Shown here: positions 15,355-64,000 of the stretch, piece by piece
Layout of the letters: each line of letters begins with the position of its first letter
Numbering within the stretch: position 1 is the first letter of the stretch
IMG/VR virus record: IMGVR_UViG_3300006099_000007
Location: 15,529-79,528 of that record
Length of the DNA stretch: 64,000 nt
Direction: 5' to 3' (one strand)
Source: a virus
Lineage: Duplodnaviria > Caudoviricetes
Made by a program: the position numbers and the translations under genes
The notes under the pieces: model-generated
Database searches by the model: none
Seen by the model: the letters and a program-made list of their open reading frames with translations, nothing else
What the model was told of the DNA's origin: nothing

Positions 15355-15963
15355 ATGGGACAGAAGAGAGACAGAGTAAACGGCGCGCTGAAGAAGGCTT
15401 TCGCGGAGAAGAATGGAAAGTCTTTGCGTTGGGCGCAGATAGAAGCGGCCAAGGATTCCCCTGCATGGAGGGGTTTTCTGGCAGAGCAGTTTCCGCCGTC
15501 ACCTGCGAAAGCGGACGGAGGCGGCGGAGAGGGCGCGCCCATGGGCGGCGCGTCCGATTTGGCGCGGGCAGGGGAGGCGAAGGAAAGCGCATGGCAGATT
15601 TTGAAGAGGATGGAAGAGCAACTGGAAACGGCCGCCCGGTCCGGTGACGTGGGGTTGATTGCGTCGTTCACCCGTGCCGTGCGCGAAGCGCGCGCGAATT
15701 GGGAGCGGGCCGGCCTGCATGAGCAGAGGCTTCAGGAGGCGGCCGGAAGTCTGGTGCCGGTCCATGTGTTTCACGAGATGCGGACGCGGGGCGTTGCGCC
15801 GCTGGCGGAGCTGATGGCGCAGCAGAGGGACTTTATTGGTTCCCGGCTGGAGGCGGCCGGACGGCCGCGTTTTTATGAAGCCTGGGACGAATGGGCGCGG
15901 GAGTGGAACAGGAAGATTGATGACCTGAACGCGGAAATAAACGGATTGTTGAATCATGTTTAG
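15355..15963 (+). CDS. Putative terminase small subunit
   Basis: Directly upstream of and overlapping the GpA-type large subunit. Confidence 0.55.
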   Translation: MGQKRDRVNGALKKAFAEKNGKSLRWAQIEAAKDSPAWRGFLAEQFPPSPAKADGGGGEGAPMGGASDLARAGEAKESAWQILKRMEEQLETAARSGDVGLIASFTRAVREARANWERAGLHEQRLQEAAGSLVPVHVFHEMRTRGVAPLAELMAQQRDFIGSRLEAAGRPRFYEAWDEWAREWNRKIDDLNAEINGLLNHV

Positions 15964-35046: not shown

Positions 35047-35458
35047 TTCAGAAATACAGATTCAGTTCCCCCGGCCCGGCAACTGGCAGGAATTCACCCT
35101 GACGCCCATTTACCGGGACGCGGGCGGTTATAGACCTCCGGCCCGCTTTAATCAGGACGATATACCCGCGGATCAGGCTCCGGCCATGGAGGCCGTCGTT
35201 GCCGCGCTGGTTGGACTGGCGGAACCGTGGCTGGCGGTGCAGGTGTGGGCGCGGCTGAAAGAGTTTTACGCTCCGGAGGAGGATGACCCCATGCGGACGG
35301 TGGAAGCCGTGGATTTGACCGTGGAGGCCGTTAATCCCCACGGGGGACGCAGGGTGTTCACTGCCCGTGACTACCCGGCTTTTATCCTGACCGACCTCGC
35401 CGCCGTGGCGTTTTTCAATTTCTTCACTACCCCTACCAATAACAACATAATCAAATGA
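35039..35458 (+). CDS. Tail-fibre-associated protein
   Basis: Close paralog of 1126-1533. Confidence 0.6.
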   Translation: MNNSEIQIQFPRPGNWQEFTLTPIYRDAGGYRPPARFNQDDIPADQAPAMEAVVAALVGLAEPWLAVQVWARLKEFYAPEEDDPMRTVEAVDLTVEAVNPHGGRRVFTARDYPAFILTDLAAVAFFNFFTTPTNNNIIK

Positions 35459-35922
35459 CTACTAACAATCAATGCAATCACGCGGAGGCAATAGCTAAGG
35501 ACCTGTACCATACCTATGCCATCGCCAAGAACCTGTCCACGCATAGGCCGATGCTGGAATACGCTGACCTTTCGGACGATGATAAGGCCGGATGGCTGGC
35601 TGTTGCACATCAAGCGCTACCAACCATTGCAGAACATGCGATGGAAGATGTAAGGAGCTACCTCACCGGGCAGGCCAAGACCTCCACCGGCTGGAAGAAA
35701 GCCCTCTATTGGGCCGGGGTGGGTATTGTCGGCGCCATCCTTGGCGGTTTGGGAATGTCCCTCTCCGGCTGCGGGCACTCCGTGGACGTGACGCCGGAAA
35801 AGACGGTGGTCTGCAAAGACGGCTCCTGCCTCGTCATTGAGCAGGGGCATATCTCCTACAGTCAGGCCCAGCCGGAAACGGACGTTCCGCCCGTTGTTCA
35901 GATCGTACCTTCCAAGAAATAA
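35455..35922 (+). CDS. Membrane lipoprotein-like lysis-region protein
   Basis: LSGCGHSVDVTPEKTVVCKDGSCLV C-terminus shared with 1526-1843; longer, different N-terminus. Confidence 0.5.
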   Translation: MTTNNQCNHAEAIAKDLYHTYAIAKNLSTHRPMLEYADLSDDDKAGWLAVAHQALPTIAEHAMEDVRSYLTGQAKTSTGWKKALYWAGVGIVGAILGGLGMSLSGCGHSVDVTPEKTVVCKDGSCLVIEQGHISYSQAQPETDVPPVVQIVPSKK

Positions 35923-35926
35923 GGCC

Positions 35927-36154
35927 ATGTGCAAACCCCTCAAGGAATATCTGGGAGTGATCCGCGATTATACGCGTGAGATCGTCACTTTCGGCGGTTT
36001 TGTGATAGCCGTGTTCATCTACCTGGATTTCCGCGAGGTGGTGAAGGAACAGGCTACCAACGCGGCCCATACGGCGGAGATCCTGCGGACGATGGATACC
36101 CGTCTCCAGCATTTGGAGAATTACCACCAGCAACAGCTTAAACAGCGAGATTAA
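35927..36154 (+). CDS. Putative holin
   Basis: One TM helix (IVTFGGFVIAVFIYL) plus coiled coil, upstream of the amidase. Confidence 0.5.
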   Translation: MCKPLKEYLGVIRDYTREIVTFGGFVIAVFIYLDFREVVKEQATNAAHTAEILRTMDTRLQHLENYHQQQLKQRD

Positions 36155-36157
36155 TTC

Positions 36158-36185
36158 CAACTGTAAAGTTTTTCTTACAAGTTCC
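36158..36185. repeat. 28-bp linker, copy 2
   Basis: Identical to 2130-2157. Confidence 0.9.
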
Positions 36186-36223: not shown

Positions 36224-36409
36224 ATGCCGGAACGATACCTTTATTTACTCGTCATTGAAACTCCCGGACGCAAGCAGGAGATGCACATGCTGCACAGCAG
36301 GAAGCAGCGTACAGCCTACAAAGCCCAACACGCGGAATGGCATCTCAACAGCACCTACGTGGAGTATGACTTGCCGGAACATCTTATTAACCAATACCTG
36401 AACAAATGA
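36224..36409 (+). CDS. Small hypothetical protein
   Basis: Overlaps the amidase start by 4 bp. Confidence 0.45.
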   Translation: MPERYLYLLVIETPGRKQEMHMLHSRKQRTAYKAQHAEWHLNSTYVEYDLPEHLINQYLNK

Positions 36410-49224: not shown

Positions 49225-49574
49225 ATGCGTTTGATGCGACCGTGAGCGCTTATGCGGAGGTGGGCCGGGATTTGTGGACGGATGTGAAGGATTGCGCGTC
49301 CCTGGGGCTGGCGTTCGTTTCCCCGGAGGAGGTGTGCCTGGCTCTGCCCTCCGAGAGGCTGGGTGAGTTGTGTTTTCCTCCTGTGGGCATGCCGGATCTT
49401 CCGGAGAGGTGCTTGTTTGTGTGGTGGGCGGCCGGGGAGCCGCGCGAGCTGGCCCGGCTGGCCCGGCAGTTTTCCCGCAGAGGTTTTACGCATGTGGCCT
49501 GGCAGCGGTTTTTGCGCGGGCCGAAGGTGCATGTTTTTTCCATTGATCAACTTACCGGTTTTATATCACGATGA
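49221..49574 (+). CDS. Small protein, possibly GNAT-like
   Basis: Coupled between internal virion genes. Confidence 0.4.
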   Translation: MNAFDATVSAYAEVGRDLWTDVKDCASLGLAFVSPEEVCLALPSERLGELCFPPVGMPDLPERCLFVWWAAGEPRELARLARQFSRRGFTHVAWQRFLRGPKVHVFSIDQLTGFISR

Positions 49575-51928
49575 GCGAGTTTTCTTTATACGGCGGGCCG
49601 TCCCTGCAGACGGCCAAGGCTGATCCCGGTGTCGCGGCGCGGGCCGCCAATGGCGATCAGGGCCAGGTGCTGGGCGCGTCCGTCCAGAAGGCCGAAGAGG
49701 CGGTTCAGGGGAGCGCGGAGGCGTTTGCCAGGATTTCCGATTTCGGGGAGATGCAGCGGCAGGAGGTGGAGCTGCGACGCATCCGGGACGAGTCCGACGC
49801 GAAGTTTTCCAGGATGCTGGCTTTCGCGCCGGGCACGAAGGAGAGCGTTTTTGAGAAGGACGGTTCCATCCGGCAGGGGAAGCTGAAAGATTTGGCTTAC
49901 GAGTTCGGCCAGAAGATTGACGCGCTGGGTGGCAGTTTTTTCCACCCGGAGAGCGCCATGAAGGCGGAGGCTGTCAGGGCTTCCGTGAGGTCAAGCCTGC
50001 CGGAACGTTATTGGGGGCTGGCTGCCAAACATCAGCTGGGCGTTGCCAGACAGGCTTTCGATACGAGTTTGAAGCTGGCCGAGGAGAAGCAGGATTGGGG
50101 CGGTTACGAGAGGTCTGTTGATGACGCCGTAGCTTCCGGCACGATTTCCCGTGACGAAGGTGAGCTGCGTTTATTGAGAGGGAGGAAGAAGGCTTCCCGC
50201 CATCATTTTGAGAACCTGGCCGCGACTAACCCGGATCTTGCCGCCGAGATGATTAACCGCGGGGAGCTGGACGGGTATTTTTCCGCCTCCGAACAGGATG
50301 AGATGATGCGTTCTTTGCGGCGTCAGGACGACAACAGGCTTACGGAGGTAGTCGAGCAGACGGCTTCCCGTCCTAAGTCAAAGAACGACAGGCAGGCCGT
50401 GACGAATGCTTTGCTGTCCGGTCCCGTCTATCAGGAAGAATTGGGGTTTCATGCGGTTTATGAGCGCGACGGGGATTACAGCGCCTGCGCTCCGCAGATT
50501 GATTCTTTCATTTACCGGGTTGCGGATATGGTGAGGGCTGGAGAAGAAGGGCCGGATTTGGCGAGCAAGAAGGAAAATGTGATCCTTCTGTGCAAGCGTT
50601 ACGCGAAGTCAGCCGAGTTCCAGAAGGATGTTTTGAACCGCATGGATAAGTGGGCCAAGCGCAAGGAAAAGTACAAGATGTTGAATGTTTCCGAGCGCAT
50701 GAAGGAGATGGATGGGGCTCCGTTGTACCGTCAGGCGGATTATAATAACGTCATTGGCACTCTTGATGCCGAGGCGAAGAATGCCTGGCAACTCTACGCT
50801 GATTCCTCCAAAGGGTCCGACACACCCAAAGACAGTGAAGATACATGGATCAAGAGGTTCAAGAAGGAGAAGATTGAGAACCTGCAAAAGAATCTTGCCG
50901 CCAAGACCGAGATTGCCGTTCGTGATGATTTTGAGGCCTGGTTTGATGGAGAGGTGCAGGGGAACGGGAAGGAGCCTTCCTATGTTTTGCAGGAGGATAT
51001 GCTTCAGACTATTTTAAGAAAAGTAACAGGTCGCAATGATTTAGTTATTCCGAGTCGTGGGAGATTGATGGATGAATACCAGCAGACTGCAAGCGAGAAA
51101 TGGAGAGATAGGGATAGTGAACGGTTTAATGCTGGCCCCAAATTATTGAGTGAAGGGGAGAAGCAGACGCTGCGCCGGAAGGATATGTTGCGCAAGCCGT
51201 TTACGTTCCCTGCCATGGTTTCCGTAGATACCGTGAATACGAACGCGCCCGCCGGCATTCTTCTGCCGGAGAGCATGAGGCAGCGGTTTGGCGACGACGT
51301 TTCCGGACTGGCCGCCCTGGTTCCTTCTTCCTCTTCTTCCCGCCGCGGGAAGCCCCTTCCCGTGGTGGGCTACACCAGGGGGAGTTCCCCCCAGCTTACC
51401 CTGTCCGGCGCCAGCAAGCTGCGGATGACGTTTTCTTCCAAGATGGATACGAATGTGACGATTTCCCCTGCCAGCCCGGAAATGAGGGAGTTTTTCAAGA
51501 GAGAATATCCGGGAAGCCAGGATTGGGAGCAGGATGCCGGAGAGTCCAGGGTGCCTGCCGCCAAGCTGGGGGGGCTGGGACAGTACAGCCAGGCTTTTTA
51601 TGATGCGGGAAGGAAGTATGGCGTGGATCCGAAGCTGTTGATGGCTATTGCCATGCACGAGACCGGCAAGGGAACGAGCGCCGCTTTCCTGCGCAAGAAT
51701 AACGCCATGGGCATCAGCCCGAATGGAGGGGGACCGCGCACTTTTTCCTCCGTGGAAGAGAGCATTAATTACGCCGCCCGCCTGTTGAGGAAGCATTATC
51801 TGGACCAGGGGTTGACGACGATTGCCGCCATTGGAGGGAAGTACGCTCCGGCAGGAGCCGGGAATGATCCGCGCGGATTGAATAAGCATTGGGTCAACGG
51901 CGTAAGCAAGTATTACAAATCATTTTAA
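49571..51928 (+). CDS. Internal virion protein with C-terminal glucosaminidase/lysozyme-like domain
   Basis: YGVDPKLLMAIAMHETG..NNAMG..FSSVEESI..GGKYAP motif. Confidence 0.8.
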   Translation: MSEFSLYGGPSLQTAKADPGVAARAANGDQGQVLGASVQKAEEAVQGSAEAFARISDFGEMQRQEVELRRIRDESDAKFSRMLAFAPGTKESVFEKDGSIRQGKLKDLAYEFGQKIDALGGSFFHPESAMKAEAVRASVRSSLPERYWGLAAKHQLGVARQAFDTSLKLAEEKQDWGGYERSVDDAVASGTISRDEGELRLLRGRKKASRHHFENLAATNPDLAAEMINRGELDGYFSASEQDEMMRSLRRQDDNRLTEVVEQTASRPKSKNDRQAVTNALLSGPVYQEELGFHAVYERDGDYSACAPQIDSFIYRVADMVRAGEEGPDLASKKENVILLCKRYAKSAEFQKDVLNRMDKWAKRKEKYKMLNVSERMKEMDGAPLYRQADYNNVIGTLDAEAKNAWQLYADSSKGSDTPKDSEDTWIKRFKKEKIENLQKNLAAKTEIAVRDDFEAWFDGEVQGNGKEPSYVLQEDMLQTILRKVTGRNDLVIPSRGRLMDEYQQTASEKWRDRDSERFNAGPKLLSEGEKQTLRRKDMLRKPFTFPAMVSVDTVNTNAPAGILLPESMRQRFGDDVSGLAALVPSSSSSRRGKPLPVVGYTRGSSPQLTLSGASKLRMTFSSKMDTNVTISPASPEMREFFKREYPGSQDWEQDAGESRVPAAKLGGLGQYSQAFYDAGRKYGVDPKLLMAIAMHETGKGTSAAFLRKNNAMGISPNGGGPRTFSSVEESINYAARLLRKHYLDQGLTTIAAIGGKYAPAGAGNDPRGLNKHWVNGVSKYYKSF

Positions 51929-51957
51929 CATTGAACATATTATAAATATTTTTCACT

Positions 51958-54900
51958 ATGAACGACAATTTTTCCTTTGACGGGGCCGACGCTGCGGATA
52001 TGCCTCTGGATCTTTCTTTTTCCTCCCTGCCGCTGCCGGAGGGCGAGGCTGCCGCCGGATTTCACCTGCCGGAGATGGAACCGGGAACAGGACAGGAGCA
52101 AGCAGCAGCCGACATTAATCTTTTGAATGGAAGCGACGTGATGGAAACCACTCCTTCCCCTTTTCCTGCTCCGGAAGATCCTTCCGAAACGGAGTTCCGT
52201 CCGCAGCTGACGGATCCTGAATCCCTGCATGACCAGGGGGCTATGATGATGTACGGCGCAGCAGAGCGAGAAGAGAGGCGCAGAAAGGATAAGCAGGCCC
52301 GGCTGATGGATGTGCTGCGGGCCGGGGCCATGGATGGAGAGGGCAGAAAGAAAGCTGCGGAACTCTGGGGCCAAGATGCTCTGAACCGCCTTGATCTGGC
52401 TAGCGAACATGACCGAGCTTATATGCTTGGGAATCGCCTGATGGAGACCATCGGTGACGGAGATAGAGATGTAGGCCGCCAGATTTACAAGAACGCCAAC
52501 AATTTGTGGGGAACAGATGTTGTTACGGCAGACCAGATTTGGAAGGATTTTCAAGGGAGGCATCAGAAGACGCTGGACGCCTATAATGAAAATCTGAAGA
52601 GGGTTCAGACTGAACAGGAGGAGATTTCCCGCCGGATAGTGGATTGCGTAGCCGGGAAGGAAGGCAGCTGGGACGCGTGTCCTGCCGATTTGCTGAAGTA
52701 TGCCGAGAGTCCGCAGAAGGCTGCCGATTCCATCATGAGGGCGCGGCGGGCGTATGCTTTTGCCGAGAGGCGCGGGTTTGAGGATGTCTGGCGCTCCGAC
52801 GCGCTGGACATGGCCGATCTGCTGACAGTGAATGTCAACGGGAATGAGGTGCTGGACCAGCAGGCGTTGATGTTGCTGATGACCGCGATTGACCGGAAGG
52901 TTCAGGAGAGCCAGACGGATTCCGCTGCTTTCTGGCGCAATTTGTATAGAAGTTTTGCCGACACGGCGCGCGGCGCGGAGAGCCTGGGCGTGAAGGCGGT
53001 TCAGGCGGTGAGGGGCATTCCCGGCATGAGCGGAATGGAAGAGTGGTATTCCAATAATATTGCTCCCCTGCAGGGGGTGAAGGATACGTTTGACGGACAA
53101 AGGCAGCTCTTCGACCGCTACGAGCAAAGACGCGAAGCGCTGAATACGATGCAGGATGTGATGCACGAGTTCGGACAGCGGATGCGGGGCACGAGCCCTG
53201 ATGCGTCCTGGTACGTCAAGGCGATTAACGGAGCCGGGAATATCACCGGGCAGAGCCTTTCCTACATGGCTCCCGGCGGCTGGGCCCTGGCGCTGGCCGG
53301 GGATATGGGGCACGCCGGGAATGCCGCCTCCCGCAACGGGGATTCCCTGGTGGACGTGACGATCAACGGGCTGCGGAATACGGTGGAGGAAAAGGGGTTT
53401 GGGGTGTTTTCCGTGTTCGGGCGCATGGGGGCCATCAACAAGCTGATGACCAGGACGGGAACCGGCGCCCTGGCGAGACTGGCCGCGAAGGTGCCGGGGC
53501 GCACGTTTTTTGCCGGGACGAGAACCGGCAAGATGCTTTCCACCCCGGCGTTTGCCTACGTGGAAGAGATGGCGGCGGAACCTCTGGCCGGGGAGTTGTT
53601 CGAGTGGACGGCCCGGAAGTTGTCCGGGATGACGGGAATGGAGGTGAAGCCGAAGGATTTCGAGGTGGTGGGCCCCGTGCTTCAGGCGATGGGGGATGTG
53701 GAGCAGTCCGGCGGATGCGCGTTGTTTGTGGCGGCCATGGCTGCCGGCCACGCTCCGAGGATGAAGCAGGAAGTGGCGGCGTTCGTGACGGATGCGCAGC
53801 GGGCCCAGCTGGCCGGATATACGAAGAAGCATGCCGAAGAGATGGCGTCTTTTTCCACGGCGGAGCACAAGGCTGCGCTGGCCCAGAAGTATTTCGAGAC
53901 TGATGTATTGAAGGATCCAGAAGGAGCCGCCGAACGGGCGCGGAAGGCCGGCGCCGAGCTGGCGGACCGGCAGGAGGCCCGGCTGTACCAGATGTCCGGC
54001 GCTCTGGACAAGGTGCTGGAGAAGGCCAACATTGGCCGTATCCGCAAGCTGGAAGGAACGGACAGGTACGAGGTGAGCCTGCGGGAGGGCGCTGTAGTGA
54101 ACGGCGTGAAGATGGAGGAAGACAGGAGCGTGGAGATGAACGAGGAGCAGACGGACGCCCTGGTTCAGGTAGTGCTGCAGGGGGCTTATTTGAATGGCGT
54201 CCGCGTGATGCAGGATGCCGTGCTGGGGAATGCCGCGATTTCGGAAGCCGGGAAGATGGATTTTATTGAGACGCTGGATATGTTGTCCGAGGAAGCGCCT
54301 GCGGAGTACCGGAAGGCGGCCGCCGAAACCGGAGGGATGACCGTCCCGGGGTTGATGGATGTGGCCGCGCGAGCCCAGGCGAGGATTGACGCGATTGTCC
54401 GGGAAGAGGGCGTGTCCGTCCAGGAAGCCAGAAGCAGGACGGATGCCGAAGTGATGGGGAAGGTTCAGCTTGGTTCCATTGCCGATTTGGCGGCGGCTTT
54501 TGAGAGGCGTCTTGATCATGCAGTGCGTTCCGGAGAGATTACGAGGGGGAGATCCGAGGAGATCAGGAACGGCACGGCGGCGGCCAGCTTCGCCCACCGG
54601 TTTACGATGGCGACCGATCCTGGGAGTTCCCTGCTGCTTTACGCAGGAGGCCATGCCACGACGGCCAACGTGATGGAGGATGTGCAGGAGTCCGCCCTGG
54701 TTCATTACATGAACCTGACCGGGAAGGATTGGCAGGATTTGTGGGAGCATTTGCAGGCGGCGGACGCCGTGTTGGGAAGGTACGGCGTGAGTCTGGGGAC
54801 GTATGAGGGCCCGGCGCATGATGCCAGGGACGTGGTGGAAAGTTTTTCCAACCTGTCCCTGTCTTCCTCCCTGGCGGATATTGAGAGCCTGCCCGTGCCA

Positions 54901-57900
54901 CAGTGGGTGAAGGACACCGCGGAGTTCGCCCTGAAGAATCTGGAGGATTCCGCCCGCATCATACGCATGGGCGAGCAATGGAACGAGTTTGCCGCGACGG
55001 ACGAGGGGAAGAAGTTTATGGAAGAGCACGGAGGCCTGGCAGACGCCCTGCAGGCCGTGGGCGTGAGTACGGAGAGCGTTTTCCGCCAGGCGCGGATGGA
55101 TGCCGCGCAGAAACTGGATGTGGAGATGGTGCACGCGGACCTTGCTTCCCGCAGGGCTCCGGGGGATGCCACGATGACGCTGGGCGAGCTGGAGGCACTG
55201 GAAGAGTCCATGGCGCGGATGGATGCCGCGGAGGATGTGGAAGAGACCGCGGAAGAGGAGGATGAGACTGATCCCGTGACCGGCATTGCCGGGAATTCGG
55301 CATCCCCCGCTCCGCTGGTGGAGGATGCCGGCGGCTCCCTGGAGGGGGTGGGGGAAGAGGCCGAACACGATGAAGAGGCCGGCGCGGAGTTCCGCGATCA
55401 CGCGTTTGTGCGGGTGGCGCCGGATTGCGTGTTTGCCCAGGTGCGGGTGGATTCCCTGGCCCTGGCGCCGGATGTGGAGCAGTTCAAGCAGGGAGATCAT
55501 AATGAACGCGGAGCCGTGAAGGGGCGCGAGCTTCAGGGATGGTTCCGGGAAGACGCCCAGCCCATTTCCGTGTGGCGGCGCAGGGATGGAGCCCTGCATG
55601 TGATTACCGGACGCCACCGGTTTGATTTGGCCGTGCGCGACGGGGTGGAGTTTATTCCGGCTTACGTGTATGAAGAAGATGATGCGCATGACGCCACTTG
55701 GGCGAAGATGCACGACGTCGGGCAGAATATGCTGGACGGTCAGGCGTCCGCGCTGGAGGTGGCTTTTTTTGTCCGGAATTCCAATATGGGCCGGGACGAG
55801 ATGGAGGCGCAGGGGTATTTGCGCCCCGGTTCCGCCAATGTGATGGGCTGGGATATTGCCACCCTGGCCGGGGATGAGGTGTTTACCCGCCTGAAGAACG
55901 GGGTGATTACGGATAACGAGGCGTGGAAGGTATGCCGCCTGTCTTCAACGGAGGCGGGACAGATGCTTGCCCTGCAGCTGCGCGAGAAGGGGAAGCCGTG
56001 GGATTACGTGGCGGCCTATGTGAAGGAGGCGGACCGGGTGGCTGCGGAGAAGTCCCGGGAGGGAGAGGCGTTTGATTTGTTCGGCAACGATACGTCCTGG
56101 CAGGAGGATTGCGAGAAGGTGGCCCGCTTTGCGGCCCGGGGGATTTCCCTGATTGCCGAACGCCTGTCCCTTCTGAAGAAGTCCAGAGGCATCAGCCGGC
56201 GGAAGGATTTGGCGGGCAGGATGGGCATCCGCCTGGAGACGGACGCAGATTTGAATGCGGCCATTCATGATTTGGAAAGAGCCAAGGGGGCATGGCAGTC
56301 CCATGACCCGGCGCTGCACCTTCATGACCGCGCCCTTGCCTGGGACGGCACGAGTGAAGTGAATCCGTTCGAGCGTGTGCCCGTTTCCGGGGCGACGTTT
56401 TCCGTGGTTGCCATGGATAGTTCCGGAACTGTCCTGGCTCCGGAGACGTTCGTCACCCGGGAAGACGGAAGTCCTGACTGGTTTGTGATTCCGCGCCGCA
56501 AGAGGCAGCCAGCCATGCCGGTGCGGCTGCTGGTGGGTTCCGATGTCGGGGAGCATCGCGGCTATGGACTGACCCATATCCTGGCTTCCCGCGGGTTTTC
56601 CTTCTGGAAGGACCGTTCCCCGGAACGCTATATCAGTTCCATTCTGGCGAATGTGAGCGAGCTTTACGAGGTGGCGCCCGGGCGTGAGCTGCTGGTTAAG
56701 GGAAGGCAGCCTTCTTCATGGATGCTGCTGCAATTGGACCGGAAGGACGGGTTTTATTCCATTGTCTCGGCTTATCCAGTGCGGCAGGGCAAGAAGCCGC
56801 TGGGGAAGAAGCTCCCCCTTGCAGAGCGACAACCTGCAAACGCGAATAGCGGCACCGCGCGCCTAGGTCCAGGATCGGCAAGCAAGGCCGCTCTGCCGTC
56901 CCAATCCGCTGGCGGGGGAGATGGTTTTTCCTTACCACAAGGGGCGCATGTTGTCAACGTGAATGAAGTGGAATGCCGGTTTGACGACGGGGCTATTGTT
57001 CCGGCGACGTTTTCCCTATCTCTGGAAAAAGAGGCAATCAAGAAGGAAGCTGTGGCTGCGGGCACGTTCATGAAGGCCCCGAACGGGAAGGAAACGAATC
57101 TGACGGAAGACCAGTGGCTTGCCGTGCGCACGGCGGCGTTTAAGAATTGGTTTGGCGATTGGGAGAAGGATCCGCAGAATGCTTCCAAGGTGGTGGACGA
57201 GAACGGGGAGCCGAGGGTGGTGTATCATGGGACATACGGTGATTTCACGGTGTTTGACAAGGCCAAGATTGGATCTGCTACTGATTATGGTATATGGGGT
57301 AGAGGATTTTATTTTACCAATATGGAGAATACTCCGTACGGGAACAAGAAGCTGGCTCTGTTTCTGAATATCAGGAATCCGTTTATTTTTAATGATTACA
57401 AGTCTGCTGAAGAGATAGGCGATTATTTAAATATTTGGGATGGGAATTTTCATGAAGATGACAGGTTTGGAATATTCCGGCCGTATGCGACAGGAGCGGC
57501 CCAGATAGCCGATAGTGCTCAAGAAAGAGGACATGATGGACTCATTGCTGTACTGGGTAAATGGACGGAGTACATTGCCTTTGAGCCGAATCAGATCAAG
57601 TCCTCCACGAACAACCGGGGGACGTTTGATCCGAAGAATCCGGACATTACGTTTTCCATTGTTTCGGCACAGGAACAGGGCTTGTTCCGGGACGGCCATT
57701 TTGAGGCGGGCAACGCTGTGATTACGGAACCGGGGGTGACGTTCTCCATTACTGCCCTGCATGCTTCCCCTCACAGTTTTCGCAAGTTTGATACGGCGTT
57801 CATGGGCAAGGGGGAAGGAGCGCAGGCGTATGGCTGGGGACTTTATTTTGCGGAAAATCCGGAGGTGAACCGGAGTTATATGAACCAGTTCGCGCAGGAT

Positions 57901-60900
57901 AAGACGACATGGAAGTTCCGGGAGGTGGAGACTGGCGTTATAGAAGTGATGCAACGATCCCTGGTAAATAGTTTTTTGCCGAAGGATGCCCTGCCGGAGG
58001 CCAAGGAGGACGCGTCAGATATCGCCTGGTCTGTTCTTGGCGATTTGGTTGATGCCTCCAAAGGAAGCATGACTGTTTCAGACATCGCCAGAGAGGTGAT
58101 GGAGGAGATTGAAATCAACAGGAAACACGCGGAGGAGTATCCCCAGGAGCGGGAGAAAATGGTCCAGCTGGAAGGCTTTCTACTTTCTCTGCTTGATCAT
58201 CTGGACGAGATAGAGGTCAGGACGGGCATGCCTTCCAATTACCGCGTGGAGCTGAATGTGGAGGATTATTTGGACTTCATGGAAGGAGGGGAGCTGCTGT
58301 TTTGGGATAAAGGGTACGGCTCATCTACAACATCCAGAATAGGAGATTGGCTTCTGGATGAGGGCAAGGAAGAAGCGTATTCTTTGTTCAACGACAAGGA
58401 TCCGGAAAATGGGTATTGGATGGGGGGCAAGATTTACCGCTCGTTGGAGGATGCCTTGGGAAGCCCCAGAGAGGCGAGCGAGTTTCTGTTAAGGCATGGA
58501 GTGAGGGGCATCAGGTACGCAGACGGTTTTTCCCGCTGGAAGGCGGAGGAGAAGCAGACGTATAATTACGTGATTTTTGACGGCAACGATATTAAGATTA
58601 CGGCGTTTGCGGACGAGTCCACCGGGGGAGCGTGGGCGGATTATGAGGATCCGACGGCGAGTTTCTCTCTTGCCACGAGAGAAAGTGTCTGGGTGACGCT
58701 GGAGCGGGAGGCGCAGAAGAACCGTTTGGAGGTGCTGCGCAGCCAGACGGCAAAAGCGTTGGAGACATGGCGCCGGGTTTGCGCGGCCAACGATGTGAAG
58801 CAGGGAGACGGCGCGGAGGCGTTCGGAAGGGTCATGGCCGTGGTGGCTTCCATTTACAAGACGCTGCCGGAGGGGTACAGGTTTGGCCTTTACCCTTACA
58901 TGAGAGCTGCCGAGAATCTTGCCACCCGTCTGGAGGACGGTCAGGCATGGCTTTCCGATGAGCTGAAGAAGGAGACGCTGATGGACGATACCAGCGAGCG
59001 CATGGATGCCGTGATTGACAAGCTGCTGGCCCGCACGCTGGAACAGGCAGACCGATATGCCGTCGACCAGATGCGGGCGGAGATGGTTGCCCGCATCAAG
59101 GCCGTGCAGCCGACGAAGAAGGCCAGCGGGAAGTTTAACAAGGGCAAGTTGAGCGCGGAGGATTACAGGCATTTGCACGGGATAGTCGCCATGATGAATA
59201 CGGACCAGGAGGCGAAGGAGAAGCGAATGCTGGAGCTGGAGGGCGTGCTTTCCAGCAACCAGTCCACCGAAGAGGAACGGGGTGCGGCCGAGCTGGAATT
59301 GAAGGATTGGCACACGTTCGGATATCTGGCCGGGATGGGACTGGAGCAGACGCGCGCCTGCGCGCGCGCCCTTGCCCTGTTTATCACGACGGGACGGACG
59401 GCCTGGTCCACCCGGTTGGACGAGGAGAGGCGCCGGACGAAGTTCAAGGCCGAGAAGATTGTGGAAGGGCTTGGGCAGGCCACTCCCCAGGGAGGACGTG
59501 ACGCGGAAGAGGATGCGAAGGCGTCTACGAGAACGAAGGCGGCCAAGTACCTGAAGTACGGTTTGCAGTCTTATTCCCAGCTGTTGAATGGATGGAAGAA
59601 GATTCCCGCCCTGCGCGGTCTGGCGCATGCCGAGGTTACTGCGATTGCCGAGGCGAATGTGGCGTTGAGGAATATGAAGCACGCCCGGGACCGGGAGGTG
59701 ACGGCCCTGGTTAAGCGGTGTTTTGGCGTTCAGCGCACCAAAGATGTGGCAAGGGTTCTTTCCGATTTCAAGAAGACAGGGGATTCCGGCGTAGTGCTGA
59801 ATCCGCTGGTGAAGGTGGAGCGCACCGTGAGGATCGCCGAGGCCCGCGAGTGGGTGGGGTTGTCTTTTGAGGAGAGGGAGGAACGACGCAAGGCAATCAG
59901 GAAGGAGTACAATGACCGGGGGCTTTCCGACGATAAGGCGTCCGTGCCGGAAGCGCTTATTCCGGAGATGCGCCGGCAGCTTGCCGAGCTGGATGAATTG
60001 GTGAAGGCCGGAGACGGACGGGCCAGAAGGAGGAAGAATATTACGGCGAAGGAGGAAGTGGTGCGCCCGGGCAGGAAGGGCGAGACGTTGAAGGTTTCCC
60101 GCGCCCAGGCGATGTATGCCATTTTGCTTTACGAGCAGGCCGAGTACGTGGAGACGATGCGGAATGAAGGCATTGGAGAAGCGGAGGTTGCCCGCCTGCG
60201 CGAGTTTGTGGGCGCCGAAGGGCTGGCGTTCGGCTACGGCCTGCGGGAGCTGATGAACCGGCAGGGAAAGCTGCTGGCCCGTGTGTATGAGGAGCGTGAG
60301 GGGGTTCCCTTCCCCGCGGTGGAGAATTATTTCCGGGCCGTGTTCCGGGCGGACCACAAGCTTGATACGAAGGCGTCTTTCGGGGAACAGACGAATGCCG
60401 TGGCCGGCGGGGCGAAGTACGGGATGCTGATTCCCAGGCGGAAGCACAATTTGCACCTGGCCTGGAATATGGATTGCGAGGCCGTGTTCCAGGCGGCGAG
60501 CGCCGAGGTGGAGAATTATATTTGCACGGCGGATATTACTGCCCGCTGGCGCGGCATTCTGGCGGACAAGGAGGCGGCAGCGTCCCTGAAGGAGCACATG
60601 GGGCGCCACGGGATTGATTCGCTGCGGCACTGGCTGGATGTGATCGACGGGGCCGGAGTGATGGAGGGGGGCGCCCTGCTGGCCGGAGCCCAGGCGACAA
60701 GCCGCTTCCAGAGCGCCAAGGCGGTGGCCCTGCTGGCCTGGAACGTGCTGACGATGCTCAAGCAGACCAGCGGCCTGATGCACGGGATGTTTGCCGGGGA
60801 GGTTGGCATGGGGAGTTTCCTGCTGCACCTGGGGCAGACGATGTCCATGACCGGACGCATGGGGGTGTTTGAGGTGATGAAGACGGAGGCTTTCCGGGCG

Positions 60901-61785
60901 AGGACCAATGACGCTCAGGCGGAGCTGGTGAGCCAGCTGATGGGGTATGCTTCCGATCAGAATTACACCGGAGCGATCAGGTTTTCCATGGCCGGCATGA
61001 GGGCTATTGAGAAGATGGACGTGTGGAGCAATGCCGTGTCCATGGCCGCCCTGTATAACGCGAAGTGGGCCGAGCTGGAAGAGGCAGGAAAAAGGACCGG
61101 CGTCCCGATGACGGATGATGAGATGCACGCCCTGTGCATGCAGAGCGTGACCCGGGCGCTGGAGCTGGTGGCCCAGCCGCTGACGCAGAGCCAGAAGAGC
61201 ATGCTGGGGGCTTCCACGGGCCTGTTTGCGAAGATGGCCTGTTTTATGAGTTCCGAGGTGTTGAATAAGGTGGGGATGATCGTTTCTCATGTGAGCTCCG
61301 GGAATTGGGGGCAGGCTCTTGCTTTATATGGAATGATGTCCGTTGCCGAACAGACGGTGATTGCCCTGTGGCACGCCCTGCTGGATGACGAGGACGAGTG
61401 GGAGAAGAACGGCGGATGGTTCGGCGCCATGCTGGGGGCTCCTGTTGCCATGATTGGCGGGGTGCCGATGCTGGGTGCGGCGGTGGAGTTTGGCTACAAG
61501 CAGGCGACTGGACAGCGTATTTACGCAGGCACCGCGTCCGGAGTGATTGATTATTCCGCGATTTACCGGGCGGCCAAAAATACGTGGAAAGCCGTCACCG
61601 GGGAGAAGGAGATGACGTTTGCCGATTGGGCGGAATTGATTCTGCTGGATGCCAAGGCGGCCGCTTACGTGGCCGGAGCGGGCGCCGGGAGCCGCAGCAA
61701 GGCGGCTGATTCCGTGGCGTCCTGGCTCTTGTCCGTGGCTGGGGTGGCGAATTTGTCCAAGCCTGGGTTTAAGCTGGCGGAGTGA
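51958..61785 (+). CDS. Giant polyvalent virion/ejection protein (ParB-like, BECR-nuclease-like and two ART-like domains)
   Basis: VITGRHR ParB-like motif; YGLTHI..YSIVSAY; VYHGT..GRGFYF..PNQIKS; LHASPH..EGAQAYGWGLYF. Confidence 0.8.
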   Translation: MNDNFSFDGADAADMPLDLSFSSLPLPEGEAAAGFHLPEMEPGTGQEQAAADINLLNGSDVMETTPSPFPAPEDPSETEFRPQLTDPESLHDQGAMMMYGAAEREERRRKDKQARLMDVLRAGAMDGEGRKKAAELWGQDALNRLDLASEHDRAYMLGNRLMETIGDGDRDVGRQIYKNANNLWGTDVVTADQIWKDFQGRHQKTLDAYNENLKRVQTEQEEISRRIVDCVAGKEGSWDACPADLLKYAESPQKAADSIMRARRAYAFAERRGFEDVWRSDALDMADLLTVNVNGNEVLDQQALMLLMTAIDRKVQESQTDSAAFWRNLYRSFADTARGAESLGVKAVQAVRGIPGMSGMEEWYSNNIAPLQGVKDTFDGQRQLFDRYEQRREALNTMQDVMHEFGQRMRGTSPDASWYVKAINGAGNITGQSLSYMAPGGWALALAGDMGHAGNAASRNGDSLVDVTINGLRNTVEEKGFGVFSVFGRMGAINKLMTRTGTGALARLAAKVPGRTFFAGTRTGKMLSTPAFAYVEEMAAEPLAGELFEWTARKLSGMTGMEVKPKDFEVVGPVLQAMGDVEQSGGCALFVAAMAAGHAPRMKQEVAAFVTDAQRAQLAGYTKKHAEEMASFSTAEHKAALAQKYFETDVLKDPEGAAERARKAGAELADRQEARLYQMSGALDKVLEKANIGRIRKLEGTDRYEVSLREGAVVNGVKMEEDRSVEMNEEQTDALVQVVLQGAYLNGVRVMQDAVLGNAAISEAGKMDFIETLDMLSEEAPAEYRKAAAETGGMTVPGLMDVAARAQARIDAIVREEGVSVQEARSRTDAEVMGKVQLGSIADLAAAFERRLDHAVRSGEITRGRSEEIRNGTAAASFAHRFTMATDPGSSLLLYAGGHATTANVMEDVQESALVHYMNLTGKDWQDLWEHLQAADAVLGRYGVSLGTYEGPAHDARDVVESFSNLSLSSSLADIESLPVPQWVKDTAEFALKNLEDSARIIRMGEQWNEFAATDEGKKFMEEHGGLADALQAVGVSTESVFRQARMDAAQKLDVEMVHADLASRRAPGDATMTLGELEALEESMARMDAAEDVEETAEEEDETDPVTGIAGNSASPAPLVEDAGGSLEGVGEEAEHDEEAGAEFRDHAFVRVAPDCVFAQVRVDSLALAPDVEQFKQGDHNERGAVKGRELQGWFREDAQPISVWRRRDGALHVITGRHRFDLAVRDGVEFIPAYVYEEDDAHDATWAKMHDVGQNMLDGQASALEVAFFVRNSNMGRDEMEAQGYLRPGSANVMGWDIATLAGDEVFTRLKNGVITDNEAWKVCRLSSTEAGQMLALQLREKGKPWDYVAAYVKEADRVAAEKSREGEAFDLFGNDTSWQEDCEKVARFAARGISLIAERLSLLKKSRGISRRKDLAGRMGIRLETDADLNAAIHDLERAKGAWQSHDPALHLHDRALAWDGTSEVNPFERVPVSGATFSVVAMDSSGTVLAPETFVTREDGSPDWFVIPRRKRQPAMPVRLLVGSDVGEHRGYGLTHILASRGFSFWKDRSPERYISSILANVSELYEVAPGRELLVKGRQPSSWMLLQLDRKDGFYSIVSAYPVRQGKKPLGKKLPLAERQPANANSGTARLGPGSASKAALPSQSAGGGDGFSLPQGAHVVNVNEVECRFDDGAIVPATFSLSLEKEAIKKEAVAAGTFMKAPNGKETNLTEDQWLAVRTAAFKNWFGDWEKDPQNASKVVDENGEPRVVYHGTYGDFTVFDKAKIGSATDYGIWGRGFYFTNMENTPYGNKKLALFLNIRNPFIFNDYKSAEEIGDYLNIWDGNFHEDDRFGIFRPYATGAAQIADSAQERGHDGLIAVLGKWTEYIAFEPNQIKSSTNNRGTFDPKNPDITFSIVSAQEQGLFRDGHFEAGNAVITEPGVTFSITALHASPHSFRKFDTAFMGKGEGAQAYGWGLYFAENPEVNRSYMNQFAQDKTTWKFREVETGVIEVMQRSLVNSFLPKDALPEAKEDASDIAWSVLGDLVDASKGSMTVSDIAREVMEEIEINRKHAEEYPQEREKMVQLEGFLLSLLDHLDEIEVRTGMPSNYRVELNVEDYLDFMEGGELLFWDKGYGSSTTSRIGDWLLDEGKEEAYSLFNDKDPENGYWMGGKIYRSLEDALGSPREASEFLLRHGVRGIRYADGFSRWKAEEKQTYNYVIFDGNDIKITAFADESTGGAWADYEDPTASFSLATRESVWVTLEREAQKNRLEVLRSQTAKALETWRRVCAANDVKQGDGAEAFGRVMAVVASIYKTLPEGYRFGLYPYMRAAENLATRLEDGQAWLSDELKKETLMDDTSERMDAVIDKLLARTLEQADRYAVDQMRAEMVARIKAVQPTKKASGKFNKGKLSAEDYRHLHGIVAMMNTDQEAKEKRMLELEGVLSSNQSTEEERGAAELELKDWHTFGYLAGMGLEQTRACARALALFITTGRTAWSTRLDEERRRTKFKAEKIVEGLGQATPQGGRDAEEDAKASTRTKAAKYLKYGLQSYSQLLNGWKKIPALRGLAHAEVTAIAEANVALRNMKHARDREVTALVKRCFGVQRTKDVARVLSDFKKTGDSGVVLNPLVKVERTVRIAEAREWVGLSFEEREERRKAIRKEYNDRGLSDDKASVPEALIPEMRRQLAELDELVKAGDGRARRRKNITAKEEVVRPGRKGETLKVSRAQAMYAILLYEQAEYVETMRNEGIGEAEVARLREFVGAEGLAFGYGLRELMNRQGKLLARVYEEREGVPFPAVENYFRAVFRADHKLDTKASFGEQTNAVAGGAKYGMLIPRRKHNLHLAWNMDCEAVFQAASAEVENYICTADITARWRGILADKEAAASLKEHMGRHGIDSLRHWLDVIDGAGVMEGGALLAGAQATSRFQSAKAVALLAWNVLTMLKQTSGLMHGMFAGEVGMGSFLLHLGQTMSMTGRMGVFEVMKTEAFRARTNDAQAELVSQLMGYASDQNYTGAIRFSMAGMRAIEKMDVWSNAVSMAALYNAKWAELEEAGKRTGVPMTDDEMHALCMQSVTRALELVAQPLTQSQKSMLGASTGLFAKMACFMSSEVLNKVGMIVSHVSSGNWGQALALYGMMSVAEQTVIALWHALLDDEDEWEKNGGWFGAMLGAPVAMIGGVPMLGAAVEFGYKQATGQRIYAGTASGVIDYSAIYRAAKNTWKAVTGEKEMTFADWAELILLDAKAAAYVAGAGAGSRSKAADSVASWLLSVAGVANLSKPGFKLAE
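52389..52553 (+). repeat. 165-bp direct repeat, copy 1 (inside the giant protein gene)
   Basis: 163/165 identical to 62422-62586. Confidence 0.9.
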
Positions 61786-61840
61786 TTCCAAAATATTGCA
61801 AGCTTGTGTTTCATTTTGTGCGCCATTATGGTGTGGACTC

Positions 61841-62722
61841 ATGAAAGGCTTGCTGATTGCTGTTTGCGTTCTTCTGGGGGTGGCGCTGTTGCCGATGCCT
61901 TACGGGTATTATATGTTCCTGCGTTTAGCTGTCTGTGCTTATGCTGTCTTTGTATTTGCACAGGAACAGAAGAAGGGAGTTTGTTTTGGAAGCGTGTCAG
62001 CCGCCGCTATTGCCCTGCTTTACAATCCCATTTTCCGGGTGCATTTGGAGAAAGAGGTCTGGATGTGGGTGAATGCCGGAACCATTGTTCTTTTTTTGTC
62101 CATTATGGCGCCATGGTCCATTATCTGGAAGAAGGTGAAGGGTCCGGTTAAAGTCCTGTTTGTGCTTCTGGTAATTGCTTCCGCCGCTTTTGCTGTTGTC
62201 AAATATAGAGAGAATGAAAGGCTGGAGAAGGTGGCCACCCATGAGCGAATGCAACAGGAGCAGGCGAGAGCAAAGCAGGAAGAGAAGATGGAATGTTACA
62301 GAGCAAGGAAAGGATCGAATACCAAGGAGATGGTCTTGATGGATCTTGTGCTGTTTGCTACCGGAGATGAAGGGGCGAAAGAGAGATTCCGCGTACGTTG
62401 GGGCGAAGATGCTGTTTCCCTCCTTGATCTGGCTAGCGAACATGACCGGGCTTATATGCTTGGGAATCGCCTGATGGAGACCATCGGTGACGGAGATAGA
62501 GATGTAGGCCGCCAGATTTACAAGAACGCCAACAATTTGTGGGGAACAGATGTTGTTACGGCAGATCAGATTTGGAAGGATTTTCAGGAGAGGAATGCAT
62601 GCGTTGTGGAGGTAGAAAAGAATATGAACGCGATCAACGCAGAAGACTGGAATAGTAATGGAGCCGAAGTTTTTGCTAAGAGCTTTTTCAAGAAGCAGAT
62701 ACAACTCAAGATTCCGAAGTAG
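61841..62722 (+). CDS. Membrane protein (DUF6804-like N-terminus) fused to a copy of a giant-protein segment
   Basis: LPMPYGYYMFLR..LLYNPIFRVHLEKEVW TM domain; C-terminal segment matches the giant protein. Confidence 0.75.
   Translation: MKGLLIAVCVLLGVALLPMPYGYYMFLRLAVCAYAVFVFAQEQKKGVCFGSVSAAAIALLYNPIFRVHLEKEVWMWVNAGTIVLFLSIMAPWSIIWKKVKGPVKVLFVLLVIASAAFAVVKYRENERLEKVATHERMQQEQARAKQEEKMECYRARKGSNTKEMVLMDLVLFATGDEGAKERFRVRWGEDAVSLLDLASEHDRAYMLGNRLMETIGDGDRDVGRQIYKNANNLWGTDVVTADQIWKDFQERNACVVEVEKNMNAINAEDWNSNGAEVFAKSFFKKQIQLKIPK
62422..62586 (+). repeat. 165-bp direct repeat, copy 2
   Basis: Same reading frame and peptide as copy 1; both differences are synonymous. Confidence 0.9.
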
Positions 62723-62779
62723 GGAAATAGTAGAGCTAAATTCTTAAAAAGCACCACGAAACTTTCTGAAAGGAATTTA

Positions 62780-62808
62780 TTGACTTGGAAAGAACCGATA
62801 CATATAAG
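62780..62808 (+). promoter_or_regulatory. Sigma70-like promoter
   Basis: TTGACT-17 bp-TATAAG just upstream of the ATG at 62816. Confidence 0.65.
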
Positions 62809-62815
62809 GGAGAAT

Positions 62816-63625
62816 ATGGACATTAAAGAAGCTGTTTCAATTTCTTTCAAGGCATTAGGTAAGAAAGAAGCCCACGTAAACGATATAGCGGAGCATATTG
62901 TTCAGCATATCGCTGAATTTCAAGGGGCATCCGTTGAGGACATGAAGAAGAAGGTTAATTCTTTTTTGGCAGCCAATGTCAAAAGCAAGACACCGGTTTA
63001 TGCAAAGGTTATCAATCCAAAGACGAAGAGATCCAGAAAGGGGCTTTATAAGATCAAGCCGGAGCCAAAAGGTACTCAAGTCATCAGAACAGAACCTGAC
63101 CGTAAAAAGAAACCAAACCCCGGAGGAGATAAGCAAGTACAACTCCCTCTTGTCTTTTCCAATACTTCCTGCGACAAGATCTTTTGCGGTAAAGGTGGTG
63201 AATTTGCTGTAGTGAGTGAATTATTATTCCGTGGCTATAATGCCAGCATTATGTCTGCTGATGAAGGAGTTGATATTACAGCGTCAAAAGGAGACAAATT
63301 TTTCTTTATTCAGGTTAAAACTTCTTTTTTCAAAGAAAACAAGCTTTCTGTTTTCATTAAACCGAATAATTTTATCAACAGCTCTACCGCTAATATATTT
63401 TATGTGATTGTGTTCCGCTATTCATGCGATGGGCATATGACTAATCGTTTTCTCATTTTGCAAAATGGGGATATTAACAGAATGCAACACGGAGGATATA
63501 TTAGCACATCAGACGCCGGAATGACAATCAAGGTCAAGCAAGACAATAGAGGATTGTTTATCTATAACCGAGATAAACAAGAAGACGCAACCTATTACCT
63601 AGATAATTTTGATCTCATTAGGTAG
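62816..63625 (+). CDS. HARE-HTH-like domain plus PD-(D/E)xK restriction-endonuclease-like protein
   Basis: N-terminal winged HTH ending GLYKIK; GEFAVVSELL..DEGVDI..IQVK nuclease motif; AT-rich. Confidence 0.7.
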   Translation: MDIKEAVSISFKALGKKEAHVNDIAEHIVQHIAEFQGASVEDMKKKVNSFLAANVKSKTPVYAKVINPKTKRSRKGLYKIKPEPKGTQVIRTEPDRKKKPNPGGDKQVQLPLVFSNTSCDKIFCGKGGEFAVVSELLFRGYNASIMSADEGVDITASKGDKFFFIQVKTSFFKENKLSVFIKPNNFINSSTANIFYVIVFRYSCDGHMTNRFLILQNGDINRMQHGGYISTSDAGMTIKVKQDNRGLFIYNRDKQEDATYYLDNFDLIR

Positions 63626-63805
63626 AAACTTATTTAACAAAAAAGCCCCTGACCCGGAGGCCAAGGGCTGAACAGGAGCGCTTTTCTGGGAGGATGCTAC
63701 TGTACACGGCTGTAATGGCAATAAAAAACCGCCCGCGTTTCCCAACGTGGACGGCTAACGGAAAATAAAAAAGAGGGTTTACCTATAACATACCTCTCTA
63801 TTACG

Positions 63806-64000
63806 TCAAGCTTTCTTCCAGCGTTCCAGCGTTTCCACATAGATGCCGGAGATTTTACCGCCGTCCATGGGTTCGATGTCTCCGAAGTCGGGATTGAGTG
63901 GATGTAATACGTATTCCATTTTTCCGGTTTCCGGGTTTTTCCTGCGAACCAGTTTTTTGAGCGTCACCCCTCGTTCATCGTGGTATTGAACAATGGTTCC
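63806..64000 (-). CDS. C-terminus of an S24-family (LexA/CI-like) repressor, 5' part outside the window
   Basis: Open frame ..GVTLKKL..YVLHPLNPDFGDI..ISGIYV.. ending at TGA 63808-63806. Confidence 0.75.
   Translation of the reverse strand, partial: GTIVQYHDERGVTLKKLVRRKNPETGKMEYVLHPLNPDFGDIEPMDGGKISGIYVETLERWKKA

Follow-up and report, generated by a model that had tools for sequence, protein, structure and literature searches.

The window (the whole 64,000-nucleotide stretch analysed here, positions 15,529 to 79,528 of IMG/VR record IMGVR_UViG_3300006099_000007) carries between 36406 and 64000 a podovirus-type temperate phage of Akkermansia. It encodes an endolysin (at 36406), a portal-like protein of 549 aa, a protease or scaffold protein, the major head protein, a tail protein of 1154 aa, TerL and another tail protein; next come a 785-aa protein with a C-terminal glucosaminidase domain and a giant protein of 3275 aa. 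The moron ORF studied here begins 55 nt after the giant ORF (Table 1).

Table 1. Features of the giant-moron locus and of its counterpart in class-3 phages (window coordinates unless a contig is named)
Feature	Position	Strand	Basis
Internal virion/ejection protein, 785 aa, with C-terminal glucosaminidase (peptidoglycan hydrolase)	49571..51928	+	PF01832 at aa 674-743; PHROG endolysin/tail-lysozyme matches
Giant polyvalent protein, 3275 aa	51958..61785	+	ART-PolyVal PF18760 at aa 1747-1890; phrog_30335
Giant N-terminal all-alpha domain (~aa 110-250), holding the tract	52285..52707	+	AF2 pLDDT 70-89, alignment A4
Giant copy of the 165-nt homogenised core (donor)	52389..52553	+	163/165 against 62422-62586
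Moron ORF, 293 aa: DUF6804 (4 TM), fifth TM, helical stalk, giant-like domain	61841..62722	+	ORF call, Pfam, AF2
DUF6804 membrane module, aa 4-89	61850..62107	+	PF20619, 1.5e-19; AF2 helices 2-16, 22-43, 49-60, 71-96
Fifth TM helix (aa 101-121), running on as a stalk to aa 154	62141..62302	+	AF2 helix 101-154; hydropathy, positive-inside analysis
Moron C-terminal all-alpha domain, aa 160-287, paralogue of the giant N-domain	62318..62701	+	pLDDT ~90
Residual type-2-like segment (WGEDAVS), adjoining the converted core on its 5' side	62399..62421	+	marks the 5' junction, shared CCGCCTTGA
Moron copy of the homogenised core (recipient)	62422..62586	+	3' junction in shared TGGAAGGATTTTCA
Second low-GC accessory ORF, 281 aa, 3' of the moron and outside the repeat	62780..63625	+	GC 0.30-0.45; weak phrog_5018 match only
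Class-3 ORF right after the giant	L047:19243-20247; L042:18000-18718; L048:9675-10679; L049:19240-19887		

The giant was assigned to the polyvalent proteins by its ART-PolyVal domain (88.6 bits), by matches to phrog_30335 and phrog_21376 and by a weak ParB-like match; its gene sits among virion genes, after those for portal, capsid, tail, TerL and the lysozyme-bearing internal protein. For polyvalent proteins as a group, Iyer et al. 2017 (PMC5512222) predict capsid packaging and injection together with the DNA; the giant, with its ART-PolyVal and further effector-like domains and its place in a virion module, is a member of this group. By such family-level prediction it would be packaged and ejected with the DNA, and its N-terminus would be expected to act in the periplasm. 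Partial homologues of the giant bear Akkermansia names at NCBI, and megablast of 51000-63999 against GenBank phages gave no match. A sharp GC trough (0.36-0.44) was seen within the giant gene at 57232-57560; relatives differ densely there, and the two observations together suggest an exchange of effector-domain cassettes around the trough. The contig of run X6, for example, has many substitutions at window positions 57666-58100.

The N-terminal module of the moron product belongs to DUF6804, as PF20619 scored 70.4 bits against a cut-off of 27 and was covered at profile positions 5-90 of 91; the preliminary description of this DNA, which had taken the copied segment to be fused to a multi-TM anchor, was therefore correct on this point. 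A longer ORF from the ATG at 61649 was considered and rejected, because it overlaps the end of the giant gene and adds a non-conserved leader rich in Arg, Pro and Trp, and all relatives start at MKGLL. The gene has a GC content of 0.46-0.52 versus about 0.6 in the giant, and this deviant base composition, together with its patchy distribution among syntenic relatives, identifies it as an accessory gene. It is absent from the G005-G010, L061 and L040/41 type relatives, and in integrated relatives it lies at the prophage end, adjoining the S24 repressor gene and sometimes that of the integrase. Among morons, the C-terminal domain showed dN/dS values of 0.04-0.2. This domain and the giant N-domain have the same helix pattern in the AF2 models. 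Fold searches with both models (Foldseek PDB/BFVD/VIA-align wide) returned nothing above background, the best Z values of 6.5-7.7 falling on TM or long helices, and the ESM Atlas gave no usable match. The GDGDxD motif was looked at, by eye only, as a possible EF-hand.

AF2 and hydropathy both predict five TM helices in the moron. The loops that carry positive charge, QEQKKG and WKKVKGPVK, share one side of the membrane, which positive-inside analysis reads as cytoplasmic; since with five helices the C-terminal domain comes to lie on the side opposite to these loops, it is probably periplasmic in the model, flipped there by the added fifth helix. In the same slot, related phages carry either a free-standing DUF6804 protein of 95 aa or a fusion of DUF6804 with a Zn ribbon. 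In the latter variant the fifth TM helix is missing and a Cys-rich domain resembling a double Zn ribbon, which should be cytoplasmic, is joined directly to the membrane module. The lack of the fifth helix in this variant implies that, in the moron, the added helix would serve to point the giant-like domain to the periplasm. Carriers of the Zn-ribbon variant were seen in a more distant phage group (L006-L009 and L022, 10001-10750), with a weak PF18912 match to the Cys-rich domain; a second copy of that domain was sought elsewhere in the L006-L009/L022 locus and none was found.

The giant-like domain is rare: phmmer retrieved 10 cluster representatives among 1.84 billion, and outside the giants and these morons the domain occurred only in two other membrane proteins. 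These are P0021, which joins a single TM helix and a coiled coil to the domain, and P0023, in which another multi-TM anchor and a coiled coil precede a domain that is 39% identical. A scan of genome contigs yielded only distant DUF6804 proteins (30-45%) and no further moron-giant pairs.

In pairwise as well as multi-genome alignments, 62422-62586 of the moron and 52389-52553 of the giant are identical, in frame, at 163 of 165 nt. Both mismatches, 62449/52416 (G/A) and 62566/52533 (T/C), fall on third codon positions and are synonymous, and the peptide encoded by the tract is the same in the two proteins. The run of identity has abrupt edges (62421/62422 and 62586/62587) and forms part of a wider repeat (D2) detected by repeat search, 52304-52563 versus 62337-62596, which amounts to 85% over 260 nt; a weaker protein similarity is found upstream (LMDVLRAGAMDGEG... 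against LMDLVLFATGDEG...). The alignments thus confirmed the in-frame match with only synonymous differences and the weaker similarity ahead of it, both of which had been reported for this DNA before. In the whole 79.5-kb record the tract is present in two copies only. It had also been remarked that the tract is AT-rich, with the suggestion that it had passed from the moron to the giant. The tract is indeed richer in AT than the immediate giant flanks (GC 0.48-0.50 versus 0.55-0.64), and in most giants its GC3 (45-52%, near the value of the moron) is below that of these flanks (62-80%). This property, however, is not specific, as GC3 is just as low in other parts of the N-terminus of the giant and the tract has a low GC3 also in giants from moron-free genomes; the argument from composition for a moron-to-giant transfer was rejected on these grounds.

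Relatives gathered from IMG/VR, ENA and Logan allowed us to follow both copies across strains. The 165-nt core of the moron matched that of the giant at 98.8% in the window and at 99.4% in both G001 and G002, whereas the window and G001 are only about 87% identical to each other for either gene. In L031, the surviving part of the giant tract (its last 55 nt) equals that of its own moron, lineage-specific variants included. A second tract type, 68% identical to the first at the nucleotide level, is carried by giants of 3500-3950 aa (L056-L068) and by the morons of L030 and G003. Over a sharply bounded stretch of 186 nt, the moron of L030 and the giant L056 agree at 99%, and the moron of G003 has variants in common with the giant L061; for this type, the evidence of pairing consists of this 99% agreement with type-2 giants from other samples and of the fusion contigs described below. 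In an IQ-TREE phylogeny of the tract, the type-1 and type-2 clades were each supported at 100/100 and both mixed giants with morons. The label 'moron' needed 7 changes for 7 rows, the morons never form one group, and the moron of G001 clustered with the G001 and G004 giants (support 97/89).

The two genes have therefore evolved in concert: the copies agree at 98.8-100% within genomes versus about 87% between lineages for type 1, and at 99% for type 2, the mosaic boundaries are sharp, and the tract phylogeny is incongruent with that of the flanks. This co-variation across strains was the check that the preliminary description had proposed and, together with the older similarity upstream, it bears out the earlier notion of an old paralogy with a recently homogenised core. 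That copies are 99-100% alike inside genomes and yet differ by 13-32% between lineages is the result of gene conversion.

The direction of the conversion could be read from the flanks. Between the window and G001, the moron flanks have dS values of 0.09 and 0.22 and the tract one of 0.79, the same as that of the giants' tracts. When the window is compared with L030, the dS of the flanks is 0-0.10, but the tract is of type 1 in one and of type 2 in the other, with a dS above 2. In the window moron, the segment 62399-62421 (WGEDAVS) is identical to type-2 morons and giants and unlike the corresponding segment of the window's own giant. The 5' junction lies within the shared 9-mer CCGCCTTGA and the 3' junction within the shared TGGAAGGATTTTCA; in the G001 moron, the 5' junction is found 17 nt further upstream, at TGGGGC. 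The near-identical moron flanks and the type-2 remnant imply that the giant overwrites the moron and not the reverse, and the contrast in dS between flanks and tract, together with the two distinct junctions, shows that the moron cassette spread recently and that its tract was replaced by sequence of the resident giant on two or more occasions. The pattern is one of recurrent ectopic conversion, from giant to moron, of the central 165-185 nt, across about 32% divergence and with junctions in microhomologies of 6-15 nt.

These data also bear on the idea that the moron is a donor cassette, that is, a reservoir that varies the N-domain of the giant and lets the phage escape exclusion or defence. 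Conversion can in principle go both ways, and the GC3 of the tract, similar to that of the moron, would fit such an origin; nevertheless, the type of tract in a giant follows the giant's own flanks, tract-bearing giants occur in genomes without a DUF6804 gene and without a second copy, the mosaic junctions and the type-2 remnant are in the moron and not in the giant, and GC3 is equally low elsewhere in the giant N-terminus. Besides, a single full-length, expressed ORF makes a poor reservoir of diversity. The transfer from moron to giant that had been hinted at earlier is thus not supported, and we regard the donor role as very improbable.

Recombination between the repeats has left another trace. 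In both P0012 (259 aa) and P0011 (229 aa), a giant N-terminus is joined through the tract to a moron tail, and such fusion ORFs were found on at least eight short contigs from different samples, with both tract types (L051-L055, L091, L095 and L096; L095 is the L053 contig). Up to the tract, the contigs encoding P0012 and P0011 are type-2 or type-1 phage, and from there on they continue with the DNA downstream of the moron (99% to L030). L091 and L096 came from an exact-pattern scan, which returned these two as further joined contigs, and L095, beside three giants and three morons. Being short and of low coverage, contigs that join a giant N-terminus to a moron tail could be mis-joins, and one might in the same vein ascribe the near-identity of the copies to a collapsed or chimeric assembly, an outcome that had been named beforehand as refuting the original reading. 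The copies in the window, however, differ at 2 sites, and assemblies made independently contain the two copies again, in their unique flanks and with lineage-specific variants for each pair. Moreover, L052, a Logan contig with k=31 and thus without repeat resolution, crosses the fusion, and the reciprocal join was not seen among 5 partial giants and 9 pattern matches, all joins being of the deletion type. Assembly collapse is hence excluded as the source of the match, and the chance that an artefact of this kind underlies the near-identity is negligible. The fusion contigs are best read as real deletions of 10-11 kb that removed the giant together with the DUF6804 anchor, and by the same sequence evidence they appear to be prophages that lost the giant gene. 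Taken alone, this part of our account, namely an accessory membrane protein, its paralogy with the giant, recurrent giant-to-moron conversion and deletion mediated by the repeats, is one in which we have high confidence.

An independent replicate was provided by a third class of giants (L042 and L047-L049), which lack the tract and have a different N-terminus. Right after the giant, these phages encode a protein (335 aa) that starts, by eye, with a Sec signal peptide-like sequence followed by a copy of giant residues ~6-94, and for which no family match was found. Over about 255 nt, giant and downstream copy are identical at 100% in L042, 98.8% in L047 and 94.1% in L049, versus 84% between L047 and L042 for both genes. 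Here too an older paralogy runs on past the tract, and the downstream protein contains an internal second repeat of this older paralogous motif. These pairs imply that a matched copy of the giant N-terminus, sent to the envelope, has recurred with a different segment and a different export device.

The matching of the two copies is not perfect, as the L049 pair has drifted to 94%, and two further strains deserve attention. A 28-kb contig ('organism A', recovered in runs X6/X7/X9) matches the window from 52612 to its end, moron included. In this strain, however, window positions 51849-52612, which cover the first 218 giant codons and the upstream spacer, are replaced by 571 unrelated letters. 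This replacement implies that giant N-termini are swapped as modules among otherwise near-identical phages, and the presence of the moron beside a giant that lacks the domain implies that matching is not obligatory. The second case, L032 (7615-10882), is a decayed Akkermansia prophage in which only the last ~150 giant codons are left and unrelated genes (SecB-like, RHS-repeat neighbours) have been inserted, with the moron, a 269-aa gene, the S24 repressor and the integrase intact. With the giant lost, the tract of this moron has diverged, at a dN/dS of 0.13.

These observations are shared ground for the main rival of the functional explanation given below, which is neutral concerted evolution. 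According to it, an old partial duplication became fused to a moron whose role is unrelated to the giant, and the repeats are homogenised or deleted as a by-product of recombination. Repeats of 165-260 nt in one replicon are ordinary substrates of recombination, and homogenisation of two such nearby repeats is possible without selection; deletions between them do occur, pairs can drift apart, as in L049, the moron is kept by one strain without the matching giant domain, and the moron domain is under purifying selection in L032 even without a giant. On the other hand, type 1 replaced a type-2 tract only 68% identical to it through junctions of 6-15 nt, at least two times and with different 5' ends, and in the meantime the moron flanks gained almost no synonymous change. 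In addition, an envelope-targeted copy of the giant N-terminus recurs with four export or anchor solutions and two copied segments, and the repeats persist even though they are costly, as they lead to loss of the giant gene. We therefore consider the neutral account somewhat unlikely.

The moron might instead serve its own phage, as an assembly dock for the giant, as a part of the ejection channel or as a lysis factor of the spanin type. A consensus scan found neither a plus-strand promoter-like site before 61841 (Verrucomicrobial promoters may differ) nor a terminator between giant and moron; nothing of this kind separates the two genes, which makes their co-transcription with late genes plausible and weakens the case for expression of the moron from the prophage. 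Furthermore, P0021 has a weak match to Rz-like spanins (phrog_1026, E 0.006), and a TM helix followed by a periplasmic coiled coil resembles the i-spanins. The window moron, however, gave no match to an i-spanin (Rz) profile and lies 25 kb from the endolysin at 36406; the gene is missing in close relatives with the same giant type, others have DUF6804 alone, it has been kept in the decayed prophage L032 without a giant, and capsid packaging is impossible for a protein that is exported or anchored in the membrane. The more specific proposal of the preliminary description, an anchor for the phage's own channel, is likewise unlikely because related phages do without the gene and the strain of runs X6/X7/X9 has a moron beside a domain-less giant. 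A function in the phage's own cycle thus appears improbable to us.

We favour the explanation that the moron is probably, by analogy with known systems, an envelope-exposed mimic that acts on the ejection apparatus of incoming kin. In this mechanism, the DUF6804 module would end in the cytoplasm, and the fifth TM helix with a helical stalk of ~35 residues would display the copy in the periplasm, where the tethered copy would mimic the leading part of an ejected giant. The mimic could then either assemble together with the giant of the incoming phage or bind in its stead to that giant's periplasmic partner, and the formation of a conduit and the entry of DNA and effectors from superinfecting kin would be blocked, an exclusion of the P22 SieA type. 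Conversion from the giant gene would keep the specificity of the mimic matched to the local phage type. In support of such a mimic, the moron domain is modelled confidently and is under purifying selection in L032 (dN/dS 0.13); display in the envelope is indicated by the charged loops, by the Zn-ribbon variant without a fifth TM helix and by the anchors of P0021 and P0023; the class-3 pairs replicate the arrangement with an independent architecture; and the gene is accessory and lies by the S24 repressor at the prophage end. Against it stand the strain that keeps the moron next to a giant without the domain, the 94% of the L049 pair and the fact that no match of the moron to a known exclusion or defence family was found in Pfam, PHROGs or PADLOC. 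Considered as a whole, conversion together with a periplasmic mimic that excludes related phages is the best explanation at hand, and we put it forward tentatively, giving it slightly less than an even chance.

Accessory phage proteins that reside in the envelope and block DNA entry by way of injected or tail-tip proteins are represented by HK97 gp15, TP-J34 Ltp and T4 Imm/Sp. These belong to different folds and families, and none is known to be a paralogue of its target or to be kept matched to it by recombination. In P22, the sieA gene adjoins the genes for the ejection proteins. SieA itself is a prophage-borne, multi-TM exclusion protein of the inner membrane that interferes with the conduit formed by the ejection proteins in the periplasm and membrane; which phages it excludes depends on the ejection proteins that they bring in (Leavitt et al. 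2024, PMC10883804). The moron is similarly small, prophage-borne, predicted to be multi-TM and part of a temperate podophage. Unlike SieA, with which it shares no sequence similarity (Pfam, PHROGs, PADLOC), it contains a domain copied from the putative target, and SieA has no known gene conversion with its target; we infer exclusion by the moron and propose only a similar mode of action, not membership in the SieA type.

A parallel to the matching itself comes from vertebrates, where CEACAM3 and CEACAM1 illustrate a decoy receptor that bears a copy of the domain recognised by the adversary, kept matched by repeated gene conversion (PMC11646289, PMC2832619). In both cases conversion from the original keeps the copied domain matched while the rest of the gene differs. 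The CEACAM system, in contrast, is eukaryotic and protects the host against bacterial adhesins, whereas the phage genes share a single genome, at a distance of 10 kb, and presumably serve a conflict of phage versus phage. For the polyvalent proteins, the survey that defined them (Iyer, Burroughs, Anand, de Souza and Aravind 2017, PMC5512222) describes no partner gene with a copy of the N-terminus and makes no mention of Akkermansia.

Superinfection exclusion proteins are common and mechanistically obscure, and to the question of how their specificity tracks fast-evolving ejection proteins this locus suggests a testable answer, as part of the target would be built into the exclusion protein and refreshed by gene conversion. 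The comparative evidence spans mosaic junctions, loss by deletion, three classes of N-terminus and four ways of anchoring or export, and it marks the N-terminal 100-250 residues of polyvalent proteins as the part that would act in the envelope. A general principle of a self-updating decoy in conflicts between phages might follow, in which an exported or tethered mimic encoded behind the gene of the injected giant has its specificity retuned by conversion each time that the cassette enters a phage whose giant is of another kind, and in which the diversification of giant N-termini (at least three classes) represents the side of escape; we give this generalization somewhat less than an even chance. 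Even if the matching were neutral, recurrent ectopic conversion across 32% divergence and prophage decay mediated by repeats would stand documented in natural populations. The locus also opens a way into prophage biology in Akkermansia muciniphila, a gut commensal relevant to health.

Other features of the window are worth recording. The 281-aa ORF that follows the moron (62780-63625) has a Lys-rich middle and a C-terminal part that, by eye, resembles a PD-(D/E)xK nuclease (GGEFAV...DI...IQVKT); it gave no PADLOC match and may be a second moron or a defence gene. At the other end, positions 245-2157 and 34186-36185 form direct repeats, 73-92% identical and spaced by ~34 kb, that cover genes of the tail end and the lysis region plus a 37-nt motif. 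These repeats imply that parts of two related siphophage-like units precede the podophage, and together with the latter they indicate that the 79.5-kb record is a composite of several phage units.
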